A stretch of DNA of 64,000 bases from Candidatus Levyibacteriota bacterium (GTDB lineage: Bacteria; Patescibacteriota; Microgenomatia; Levybacterales; UBA12049). Both the position numbers and the translations under genes were made by a program. This document shows, in pieces, positions 35,126 to 38,100 of this stretch (positions are counted from its first letter, which is position 1; every line of letters starts with the position of its first letter). The notes under the pieces are model-generated. The model had not been told where the DNA came from. It worked only from the letters and a program-made list of their open reading frames with translations, and searched no databases. Where the stretch lies: assembly GCA_052034235.1 (NCBI GenBank), contig JBPOIT010000011.1:118719-182718 (forward strand). Direction: 5' to 3'.

Positions 35126-35791
35126 TAGACGGCCTAGAATTGTTTGTCAACTGCAGACTATTTATAGACAATAAGGTGCAGAGAACCTATGTACGCAGTC
35201 ATAAACAATTGACACATTTTTATTGAACATGCCTGTTTCCACAAAAAAACCCACCTATAAAAGATGGGTCTAAAACGTAAATACACAATATACTTAAACT
35301 TCAACCAAGACGTGGTAGGAAGGCGAGAGTAGATTTGCTTATCTCTAAGTGTTCCTCGATCGACCAAAAGGCCAATTTTGGAAAGGTCCTGCTTGCGCAG
35401 GGTTGCGAGATATGCCAGGTGCTACTCACTCCACCTGTTGTCATACATTTTCCTAGCTAGTCCAGTTATTGCTAACTGTCTAACGTAGTTATATGTCTTC
35501 CCCCGTCCGTTCAACAAAAGGTAAGAAATTATTACTGTTCTCTATTCTCTGAGCGACTATGCGATACGAGAGGTAAATACCTCTGTGTCGACTTATAAAT
35601 CGGTTCACAGTTTTAAAACAAAAACGGTAATCCTTTCAAACTTTAATATGTTTAATTAGAAAGGAGGTGATCCATCCCCAGCTTCGGCTAGGGATACCTT
35701 GTTACGACTTAAGCTTCATCGCCAAGCTTGGACTCGTCCACCTTACGGTAGCCTTCATCCACTCCCGACTTTGCTGCCTTGACGGGCGGTG

Positions 35792-36587
35792 ATCGCAGTA
35801 AGAACTATTCTGCTCCCCACTGGACGTGCGGATTTCCCGCATCCAGCGAGTCTCTTATAAAAGCCTCTTTGAGAAGTTTTATCTTCTCAATGCCAGAAAT
35901 GGTTAAATGATGCTTTTGAAGCATGAGATTTGCTACGATACAAAATAGAGCAAAACTCTGCTTTTTCTTTGCTTGTAGAGGATATTTTGTAAAGAATGGA
36001 ATAATTTTTGTTGTAATATCTTTTAAGTTTGAGACCTTATATTTGTAATGCGGTCTCCACTTTTTATACCTCTCATATTTGAGATGGTAGATATTGCCAC
36101 AAGCAAACGATTCTTTAATCCTTTCTAAAATTTCCAAATCATCTTCTCGTAATTCTATTTCGAAGATGAGTCTTACTTCAAGCAAACGATTGTTTTTGTG
36201 TTTGTTAAAACTAACACTAAAACAACCTTCACCATCAACTAATCCAACAATATAATAAGGATTTAATTTTGAGTTCATCCCTTCCTCTAAAATCATTATA
36301 CATAATTCTAAAGTACTATGGAATCTGCTGACTTCCTATAGCCGATTATAGTTCTGATGCATATAGGATCTCCTTGGGTCACTTAAAAGACAATTTCAAA
36401 CATCCTAAGAAGCTTTTCTAGTCTCTTCCTCTTAGTACACGTAAGAGTCGAGAAGCTTTGTTTATCTTAGGCTGCTCTTCGTTTCATCGAACCCTTCAGA
36501 CTTTCCCTTACGGGAGAAGTCCTGTTCTTCAACTACAAGAATGGATTTTCACCATTTTGTCGGTTAAGCTGCCAAGCGCATTTAATT
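35792..36587 (-). mobile_element. Intron inserted in the 16S rRNA decoding-region helix (near E. coli position ~1395), probably group I
   Basis: The sequence between the TTGTACA and CACCGCCCGTC halves of the conserved 16S motif has no rRNA similarity and contains a homing-endonuclease ORF. Confidence 0.75.
35805..36296 (-). CDS. LAGLIDADG-family homing endonuclease encoded within the 16S intron
   Basis: 163 aa with an IVGLVDGEGCFSV motif (a single LAGLIDADG motif is visible). Confidence 0.8.
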   Translation of the reverse strand: MILEEGMNSKLNPYYIVGLVDGEGCFSVSFNKHKNNRLLEVRLIFEIELREDDLEILERIKESFACGNIYHLKYERYKKWRPHYKYKVSNLKDITTKIIPFFTKYPLQAKKKQSFALFCIVANLMLQKHHLTISGIEKIKLLKEAFIRDSLDAGNPHVQWGAE

Positions 36588-38100
36588 TGTACAAGACCCG
36601 AGAACGTATTCACAGCGGCCTACTGATCCGCGATTACTACTGATTCCTCCTTCATGCAGTCGGGTTGCAGACTGCTATCTGAACTGAGGCGAAATTTCTG
36701 AGATTTGCTTGCCGTCGCCGGCTTGCTGCTCTTTGTTCTTCGCCATTGTAGGGTGTGTGTAACCCAGGGCATAAGGGCCGTGCTGACTTGACGTCTTCCC
36801 CTCCTTCCTTCCCGATATGATCGGGACCGTCCGAAATGAATATGTAACATTTCGCGGGGGTTGCGCTCGTTTCCCCACTTAAGGGAACATCTCACGACAC
36901 GAGCTGACGACAGCCATGCAGCACCTGTGGTACCATCCTTACGGATCTACCAATGTTTCCAAAGGTATTAAACGGTATCATGTCAAGCCCTGGTAAGGTT
37001 TTTCGCTTTGTCTCGAATTAAACCACACGCTCCACCAGTTGTGCGGGTCCCCGTCAATTCCTTTGAGTTTTAACCTTGCGGTCGTACTCCCCAGGCGGTT
37101 CGCTTAATGCGTTAGCTTGAACCTCTGCAGACAAGTCTGCAAAAGTTAGCGAACATCGTTTACGGCTAGGACTACACAGGTATCTAATCTGTTTCGCTAC
37201 CCTAGCTTTCGTGCCTCAGCGTCAGGAAAAACCCAGGAGCCTGCCTTCGCCCTTGGTGTTCCAGTTAATATCAACGCATTTCACTGCTACACTAACTGTT
37301 CCAGCTCCCCGATCAATCCTCAATTCCGTGAGTATCACCACCAGTCCCAAGGTTAAGCCTTGGTCTTTAAGTAATGACTTTACGGAACGCCTACGCACAC
37401 TTTACGCCCAATGAATCCGGATAACGCTTGCCTCCTACGTATTACCGAGACTTCTGGCACGTAGTTAGTAGAGGCTTATTCTCCAAGCTGTGAAAGGCTT
37501 GGCAAAAGGAGTTTACAACCCGAAGGCCTTCATCCTCCACGCGGCGTCGCTGCGTCAGACTTTCGTCCATTGCGCAATATTCCTGGTTGCTGCCATCCGT
37601 AGATGTATTGCCCGTGTCTAAGTGCAATTGTGGCTGATCGACCTCTCAGTCCAGCTACCCGTCATCGCCTTGGTAAGCCTTTACCTTACCAACTAGCTGA
37701 TGGGACGCAGGCTCCTCTCTCGGCGGACCGTTAAGTCCTTTACCCTTGCGGGACTATAGTGAATTACCCGACCTTTCGGCCGGCTATGCACTACCCAGAG
37801 GTAGATTCCTACGCGTTACTCACCCGTCTGCCACTTGAATATTACTATTCCCGTTCGACTTGCATGCCTAAGGCACGCCGCCAGCGTTCATCCTGAGCCA
37901 GGATCAAACTCTCAAAAAAAATTTGGGTTTCAGATTTCTTTATTTGTATAAGGAATAATCTGAAAAAAATTCCTACCACATCTTGATTGTCAAACGCATG
38001 ATTATCCAAATCACACGCTTGAACTGTTGCGTGAATAAGTGTGTTGTGTATTTCGTTTTTAAAGAGCAATAGTATTTATTGTAGAGCGTTTTGAGATAAA

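Follow-up and report, generated by a model that had tools for sequence, protein, structure and literature searches.

A stretch of 64,000 nucleotides of contig JBPOIT010000011.1 from a Candidatus Levyibacteriota bacterium (assembly GCA_052034235.1; hereafter the window, whose own numbering is used throughout) carries on its minus strand a 16S rRNA gene that is interrupted by 796 nt within the decoding-centre sequence. We regard the insert as very probably an rns-1396 group II intron that is mobile and self-splicing, encodes a LAGLIDADG homing endonuclease (LHE) in place of a reverse transcriptase (RT) and resides in the 16S gene of a Levybacteria-like member of the Candidate Phyla Radiation (CPR).

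The bacterial small subunit rRNA model (Rfam RF00177) matched 36540..37919(-) with 1249 bits. The 5' exon found by this match (36588..37919(-), 1332 nt) aligns without gaps with intron-less 16S genes and ends in TTGTACA at 36588, equivalent to E. coli position 1396; its end is given here as ...GGGTCTTGTACA, ...CGGGUCUUGUACA and ...GGGUCUUGUACA. The 3' exon (35660..35791(-), 132 nt; CACCGCCCGUCA ... GGAUCACCUCCUUU) begins at 35791 with CACCGCCCGTC, also given as CACCGCCCGTCA and CACCGCCCGUCAAGG, and the gene ends at about 35660 with the sequence GGATCACCTCCTTT (...GGAUCACCUCCUUU). The exons sum to 1464 nt, close to the 1.47 kb estimated in a first-pass annotation made from the letters alone, and the spliced product is contiguous with intron-less 16S genes. 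The whole intron spans 35792..36587(-); the universal motif and intron-less alleles define its bounds, and its assignment to group II rests on the Rfam models RF01998 and RF00029 and on covariation. Both the split of TTGTACA by 796 nt and the view of the insert as an intron instead of an expansion segment, as annotated at first, were thus confirmed, the former on the minus strand by the small subunit model and intron-less alleles, the latter by the group II matches, covariation and uninterrupted relatives.

The split motif belongs to the universally conserved 1390-1407 region of 16S rRNA, and the insert separates E. coli positions 1396 and 1397 (UUGUACA|CACCGCCCGUC; numbering according to Liu 2026, PMC13190283, whose Table S4 lists identical exon contexts). 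A scan for the endonuclease, with one genome taken per species, returned 80 loci, 28 of which hold a homologous open reading frame (ORF) inside an insert of 781-1040 nt at the identical position of the 16S gene. The record titles of these intron-bearing loci name Levybacteria, Gottesmanbacteria, Kazan, Shapirobacteria, Parcubacteria and many Saccharibacteria. Since these 28 independently assembled loci share the site and a homologous insert, and the junction is uninterrupted in the same flanking context in at least 120 metagenome contigs, the split is no chance pattern. The predicted spliced 16S sequence is 93.7% identical to its best intron-less counterpart (L109) and 92% identical to two others over positions 1-1464 (L128, L112), always gap-free, whereas the best intron-bearing 16S gene reaches only 89.7%. 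Hence the intron is optional within the lineage, because intron-less genes are closer to the window gene than any intron-bearing locus compared.

Ribozyme architecture and splice sites

Judged from its sequence, the insert forms a compact ribozyme of group II that belongs to the rns-1396 family and has a probably IIC-type backbone. The model RF01998 (group-II-D1D4-1) matched 36278..36354 with 37.1 bits against a gathering threshold of 35, and RF00029, which describes domains V and VI (DV, DVI), matched 35792..35851 with 35.1 bits (E=6e-5), its last base being the last base of the insert. A CGC triad can be read directly in the window intron, as can a ribozyme whose non-coding sequence amounts to about 370 nt. 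No RT is encoded in the intron, whose sole ORF with a family match is the LHE. The group I core elements P1-P9 that the first-pass annotation had envisaged were not found: the group I model RF00028 gave no match in 35600..36700 at E<=10 with relaxed filters and none at its gathering threshold anywhere in the window. A group I identity was therefore rejected, given also the covarying group II structure.

This structure was assessed in two alignments of the comparative set against RNAalifold consensus structures, one for domains I to III (D1-D3, n=22) and one for DV/DVI (n=26). In D1-D3, 59 of the 81 pairs, distributed over 13 helices, are compensatory, and 94.9% of the cells are paired as compared to 33-50% in slid controls, in which partners were shifted by 1-3 columns; not one of 500 shuffles matched the observed values. 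The DV/DVI alignment yielded 21 pairs, 13 of them compensatory, with 94.7% of cells paired against 34-47% when slid, and shuffles matched in 0/500 cases on four of five measures and in 8/500 on pair types. DV alone contributes 14 pairs (98.9% of cells paired, 6 compensatory), and in DVI all 7 pairs are compensatory. As the consensus structures came from the same alignments, some edge over the slid controls is expected; the independent compensatory changes, present in every helix, go far beyond it.

Following the intron from its 5' end, a terminal linker (36581..36587(-)) reads AAWUAAA in 22/22 aligned relatives, with A1, T4, A6 and A7 invariant, and also in the Thiomargarita seed sequence discussed below. 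It is followed by UGCGC (36576..36580(-)), the counterpart of the group II (G)UGYG motif, preceded by A instead of G and conserved as K-G-Y-G-C in the alignment; the copy L020 has UGUG at this position, consistent with Y. All copies thus start with AAWUAAA-KGYGC, a linker of 6-7 nt and then the GUGYG counterpart. Domain I (intron nt 12-215; 36373..36576(-)) comprises a basal helix, a GUAA-capped arm and a D1d arm that bears the exon-binding site 1 (EBS1), together consensus helices 1-10 with most pairs compensatory. The EBS1 hairpin CUCUUA-CGUGUAC-UAAGAG (36429..36447(-)) is helix 10, in which 6/6 pairs are compensatory and GUGUA of the loop is invariant. Domain II (intron nt 216-258; 36330..36372(-)) corresponds to helix 11 with 12 pairs, 5 of them compensatory. 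Domain III (intron nt 265-311; 36277..36323(-)) is preceded by the junction J2/3, AGCAGA, is covered by RF01998 and contains the covarying helices 12-13. The LAGLIDADG gene forms domain IV (35805..36278(-)), between D3 and DV. DV itself (35816..35850(-); CUCGCUGGAUGCGG-GAAAU-CCGC-AC-GUCCAGUGGG) lies within the 3' end of the ORF and is matched by RF00029; as read from the sequence it shows the CGC triad, a G.U wobble, a 2-nt AC bulge and a GAAAU loop. DVI (35795..35813(-)) folds into a short helix whose bulged A, at 35799, stands 7 nt ahead of the 3' splice site and whose loop holds the ORF stop codon TAG (35805-35807). The bulged A is kept in 23/23 main-family sequences, and the intron ends in GAU at 35792, that is, in a terminal AU.

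The 5' splice site is predicted at the junction of exon and linker. This follows because the ligated exons then give the universal sequence, because the invariant loop of the covarying D1 hairpin complements GUACA|C, and because intron-less relatives align gap-free with the predicted spliced 16S rRNA. In particular, the complementarity of the loop GUGUAC (36435-36440) extends over the final 5 nt of exon 1 and the first nucleotide of exon 2, and Liu 2026 (Table S4, PMC13190283) gives the same EBS1 core for rns-1396. While complementarity and conservation of this loop are observed, its role as a guide is predicted. Splicing right before AUGCG was considered and rejected; 6 extra nucleotides would then stay in the decoding centre, against the uninterrupted sequence of intron-less relatives and the EBS1-GUACA pairing. 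Inspection of the 22-sequence alignment by eye, which was no formal search, showed no conserved complement to the exon upstream of the intron-binding site 1 (IBS1) that could serve as EBS2.

The comparative set also contained variants of the intron. At this 16S site, four loci (L029:1278-2185, L030:2606-3511, L032:2602-3508 and L038:2600-3522) carry introns of a second, divergent subfamily. These introns are 906-923 nt long, start with AAUAAUAUGCGCC (AAUUAAAUUGCGC in L038), have a different DV sequence, end in GAA, not AY, and score 45-56 bits with RF01998. The intron of L005 (537-1576) reaches 1040 nt through a 246-nt insertion after intron nt 312, in the distal D3 loop, which holds an ORF of about 66 amino acids with CPVC...CKNC spacing, resembling a zinc ribbon. 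Furthermore, L029 carries a separate group I intron (411-639; RF00028, 88.9 bits) upstream of its group II intron; thus one 16S gene can hold introns of both classes.

The endonuclease and the proposed splicing and homing

The 163-aa ORF with a LAGLIDADG motif noted in the first-pass annotation was found at 35805..36296(-) and contains YIVGLVDGEGCF. Its close homologues all start at an internal methionine, MNSKLNPYY, so that the real product is probably 157 aa plus the stop, with its start at 36278. A purine-rich 3' strand of D3, GAGGAAGGG, lies just 5' of this methionine codon and likely doubles as a ribosome-binding site, and the AUG contributes its A to the pairing of the basal helix. Pfam LAGLIDADG_1 (PF00961) matched the protein with E=2.3e-24 and 86.7 bits (cut-off 23.1) as one domain in 157 aa. 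The best sequence match in the Protein Data Bank (PDB) is 4lq0 (I-LtrWI; E=2.7e-40), and among solved structures the best relatives are I-LtrWI, I-PanMI, I-SmaMI and I-OnuI, double-motif monomers of the I-OnuI type, of which each half aligns with the entire window protein. An AlphaFold2 (AF2) model with a predicted TM-score (pTM) of 0.72 gave a Foldseek probability of 1.00 and a query-normalised TM-score (TMq) of up to 0.77 to I-OnuI and I-SmaMI, in agreement with the Pfam result on the endonuclease fold that the annotation had anticipated. The core of this fold has the order alpha-beta-beta-alpha-beta-beta-alpha. With one motif in 157 aa, the enzyme is expected to act as a homodimer.

Homologues of the endonuclease fall into 661 protein clusters. 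The motif D15-G16-E17-G18, which includes the acidic residues D15 and E17, is invariant among 16 relatives. Over the first 140 codons, the ratio of non-synonymous to synonymous substitution (dN/dS) was 0.17 relative to L001 (dS 0.73) and 0.09 relative to L002; the ORF is intact and under purifying selection. It passes through the catalytic DV and stops in the DVI loop, so its last ~15 residues (RDSLDAGNPHVQWGAE) are encoded by DV/DVI. This tail is predicted to be disordered (per-residue confidence, pLDDT, <50) and is conserved in many relatives, while in several others the ORF ends before or partway through DV and the tail is gone or shortened; its conservation is thus a property of the RNA. 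In L022, L034 and L038 the endonuclease ORF is truncated (50 aa, 93 aa) or undetectable and the ribozyme is kept, a pattern that fits the usual decay of homing endonucleases after fixation.

We propose the following course of events. The pre-16S transcript would fold into D1-D3 and DV-DVI, a fold backed by covariation. The D1 loop GUGUAC would then pair with GUACA, and its first G could pair with C1397, by which both splice sites would be fixed. The first cut is predicted at the exon/linker junction, 6-7 nt upstream of UGCGC, and would most likely proceed by hydrolysis, because this is the pattern of group II introns with 5' linkers and of IIC introns in vitro. For introns that splice upstream of GUGYG, a water-driven first step is described by Li 2011 as cited in PMC4424553, and hydrolysis by IIC introns in vitro is stated in the abstract of PMC4748821 and in Liu 2026 (PMC13190283). 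The conserved bulged A would keep branching possible at this step. Ligation would restore UUGUACACACCGCCCGUC and a 16S rRNA of 1,464 nt, as suggested by intron-less relatives, which are identical there. The 157-aa endonuclease, translated from the start inside D3, would work as a homodimer and cut intron-less 16S rDNA at the conserved 1396 site (TTGTACACACCGCCCGTC), whereupon repair of the break would copy the intron in. Cleavage of the intron-less allele by the window enzyme is expected by analogy with its family: the CPR enzyme I-ShaI, encoded in a group I-like insertion of a 23S gene, was shown to dimerize by cross-linking and to cleave its own insertion site (PMC11270868).

Several points weigh against a mobile, self-splicing group II intron. 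The RF00029 score of 35.1 lies under the Rfam gathering score of 40. GUGYG is absent from the exon junction and the first base of its counterpart is A, not G; the intron starts with AAUUAAAUGCGC, and (A)UGCG sits 6-7 nt past the splice site. Such displacement is a known deviation, termed the "5' terminal linker", found in all rns-1396 members (Liu 2026, PMC13190283). The subclass is disputed, being given as IIB1 (Zimmerly & Semper 2015, PMC4424553) or as IIC (Liu 2026, PMC13190283). The ORF crosses both DV and DVI, so that translation might hinder the folding of the ribozyme and vice versa. Finally, splicing, its chemistry and endonuclease activity at this locus are all deduced from sequence.

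The non-canonical 5' end would also suit a relic that has decayed and no longer splices, or an intervening sequence whose removal by host RNases, without ligation, leaves a fragmented 16S rRNA. RNase III indeed removes some bacterial rRNA intervening sequences in this manner (PMC11270868), and the three relatives with a truncated or missing endonuclease ORF point in the same direction. Nevertheless, we consider this highly improbable, since strong structural selection acts on the ribozyme core in distant CPR phyla as well as in Thiotrichaceae, since the window has an intact catalytic DV, bulged A and EBS1 and also an intact endonuclease ORF, which evolves under purifying selection, and since a break at 1396/1397 in the decoding centre would part helices h44 and h45 from the body of the rRNA. 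That the protein is chiefly a maturase and the intron is vertically inherited is very improbable. Some LAGLIDADG proteins encoded by group I introns are maturases (Zimmerly & Semper 2015, PMC4424553), the window intron clusters with introns of the closest 16S relatives, and purifying selection fits either role; however, the motif shows no variation in its catalytic acidic residues, the intron is patchy and missing from the closest relatives, and the occurrence of the family also in Gammaproteobacteria requires horizontal spread. Moreover, the LHE of a Leptographium group II intron gave no promotion of splicing (PMC4424553), and a CPR LHE cleaved its own insertion site (PMC11270868). A group I intron with a LAGLIDADG endonuclease is practically excluded, even though such ORFs are typical of group I introns, more than half of the CPR rRNA insertions are group I-like (Tsurumaki 2024, PMC11270868) and the 16S gene of L029 contains, at another place, a group I intron of its own: two independent group II models match where RF00028 does not even at E<=10 (35600..36700), the covariation-backed structure consists of DV, DVI and the EBS1 loop without P1-P9, and the 3' terminus is AU behind a bulged-A helix with no terminal G.

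In a neighbour-joining tree, the window intron groups with Levybacteria-type copies, and a Thiomargarita copy falls among the CPR copies at a position that the tree does not resolve. It is tempting, though taken jointly rather doubtful, to suppose that the CPR, in place of giant sulfur bacteria, may be the main reservoir of rns-1396 introns and that the layout of the intron could make LHE translation and ribozyme folding mutually exclusive. The former idea rests on the 661 endonuclease clusters, the 28/80 intron-bearing loci over many CPR lineages and the Thiomargarita ribozyme lying within CPR diversity. The latter is suggested because the D3 helix includes both the AUG and its putative ribosome-binding site, and because the ORF continues across DV into DVI; if true, mutual exclusion would time endonuclease expression relative to splicing.

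Among the intron-bearing loci, L010, L012, L015-L020 and L023 are labelled Saccharibacteria, Saccharimonadia or Saccharimonadales. Saccharibacteria are named in the abstract of Tsurumaki 2024 (PMC11270868) as an exception, having few rRNA insertions. Five loci from third-party assemblies titled "uncultured Gammaproteobacteria bacterium" (L001, L003, L005, L006 and L008) encode a CPR-type endonuclease 75-84% identical to that of the window, and the 16S genes of L001, L006 and L008 are 76-90% identical to the window gene. The taxonomic labels of these five loci look unreliable.

Genomic surroundings and implications

The 16S gene lies among protein-coding genes, and Rfam models detected no 23S or 5S rRNA gene in the whole 64-kb window; the rRNA genes are therefore unlinked. 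The neighbours encode a SpoU methylase (39265-39906), a protein with a CarboxypepD_reg domain (34628-35125) and a Wzy_C protein (33497-34627), and genes for tRNA-Cys and tRNA-Ile(GAT) are situated 2.2 kb and 3.4 kb downstream of the 16S gene, respectively. Two plus-strand ORFs (36094-36255 and 36458-36643) overlap the intron region and were taken as chance products of structured RNA or of the LHE-gene antisense strand. Elsewhere in the window, a SAM-I/IV riboswitch match at 44781-44919(-) scored 45.8 bits against a gathering threshold of 41.1 (39.4 bits, under the threshold, when scored as a classic SAM-I riboswitch); the ORF downstream of it (about 386 aa; 43585 to ~44745, minus strand) has no Pfam match.

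The insertion at 1396/1397 falls within what we take to be the site of the "universal" primers 1391/1392/1406R, and amplicons across it would be longer by 796 bp. At 2.26 kb and broken within the 1391-1406 primer site, the gene would thus be missed or mis-sized in some PCR and length-based surveys. The first-pass annotation had warned that amplicon and length methods would mishandle this organism, which appears reasonable given the presumed primer positions and the 796-bp insert. In addition, a gene caller would call a spurious protein-coding gene within the rRNA. The intron is a further case of a rare pairing, in which a group II ribozyme carries a DNA-based mobility protein of the LAGLIDADG type, a combination uncommon in biology overall and already published for CPR hosts at the 1396 site. 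As the target is among the most conserved sequences in biology, one intron family can be found both in the CPR and in giant sulfur bacteria. Current understanding is not overturned, since the family, the site, the 5' linker and the presence in CPR have been published.

Relation to known systems

Endonuclease-bearing rRNA introns, described as characteristic of CPR bacteria in the first-pass annotation, are documented as such by Tsurumaki 2024 (PMC11270868). That study reported 53 group II-like insertions in CPR 16S genes, all at about position 1400, of which 39 carry an LHE and none an RT, and the window intron is evidently one of these "group II intron-like" insertions at 16S position 1400. 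These insertions, 16IS9 in that study, agree with it in host clade, site, Rfam-based group II assignment and an LHE without RT. While they were classed by Rfam match only, the structure, the linker, EBS1 and covariation are added here.

The rns-1396 (S1396) introns were first seen in Thiomargarita, according to Salman 2012 as cited in PMC13190283. Liu 2026 (PMC13190283) describes them as having a IIC backbone, a linker in all members, no EBS2, IBS1 and IBS3, and a single-motif LHE in domain IV. The main text of that paper confines rns-1396 to Thiotrichaceae; its Table S4 includes six CPR members, namely Saccharimonadota, Kazan, two Daviesbacteria, Parcubacteria and one uncultured bacterium. 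The Thiomargarita introns share with the window intron the site, the 5' start AAAUAAAUGCGCCUGGCAG, the EBS1 core GUGUAC and a single-motif LHE in domain IV; like it they have no RT, and they lack EBS2, which appears to be absent from the window intron too. The seed sequence of Ca. Thiomargarita nelsonii (FR690945; Liu 2026 Table S5) starts with AAATAAATGCGCCTGGCAG, the same as the CPR consensus. When this seed is placed on the CPR structure, 74 pairs can be evaluated and 73 of them form; with respect to the window 26 are compensatory, at a ribozyme identity of 64.6%. This comparison covers the 5' ~320 nt, from the first ~400 nt of the copy, and DV/DVI lie outside it. Two Thiomargarita loci from the genome scan, L044 (a 23S rRNA intron locus) and L045 (no Rfam hit), were unusable as S1396 comparators. 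The Thiomargarita copies differ from the window intron in the host phylum (Gammaproteobacteria as opposed to CPR), in sequence, with a ribozyme identity of about 60-65%, and in a divergent endonuclease whose motif reads GFVVGEGCF instead of GLVDGEGCF.

Fungal mitochondrial IIB1 introns (PMC4424553) likewise combine a group II ribozyme with an LHE in rRNA genes. According to Toor & Zimmerly 2002 and Li 2011, as cited therein, they carry insertions at the 5' terminus, splice 1-33 nt upstream of GUGYG and have lost EBS2. Their endonuclease belongs to the same I-OnuI-like clade as that of the window, called "LHE2" in Liu 2026 (PMC13190283). In contrast, the fungal introns are of subclass IIB1, encode LHEs that mostly have two motifs and are often without the branch-point A, whereas the window intron has a compact IIC-like backbone, a CGC triad and a single-motif LHE and keeps the bulged A. 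A bacterial group II intron of Clostridium tetani, C.te.I1, is described in PMC4424553 as splicing 8 nt upstream of GUGYG, so that its 5' splice site, like that of the window intron, is shifted away from the consensus.

The endonuclease resembles I-OnuI, I-SmaMI, I-LtrI and I-PanMI (E down to 2.7e-40, TMq 0.70-0.77, 29-42% identity), with which it shares the metal-binding acidic residue of the motif. The enzymes of the I-OnuI family are two-motif monomers of about 300 aa, whereas the 157-aa domain of the window is expected to be homodimeric, like I-CreI and I-ShaI. Taken together, the window intron is a further member of the described rns-1396 family, whose site, linker and occurrence in CPR have already been published.

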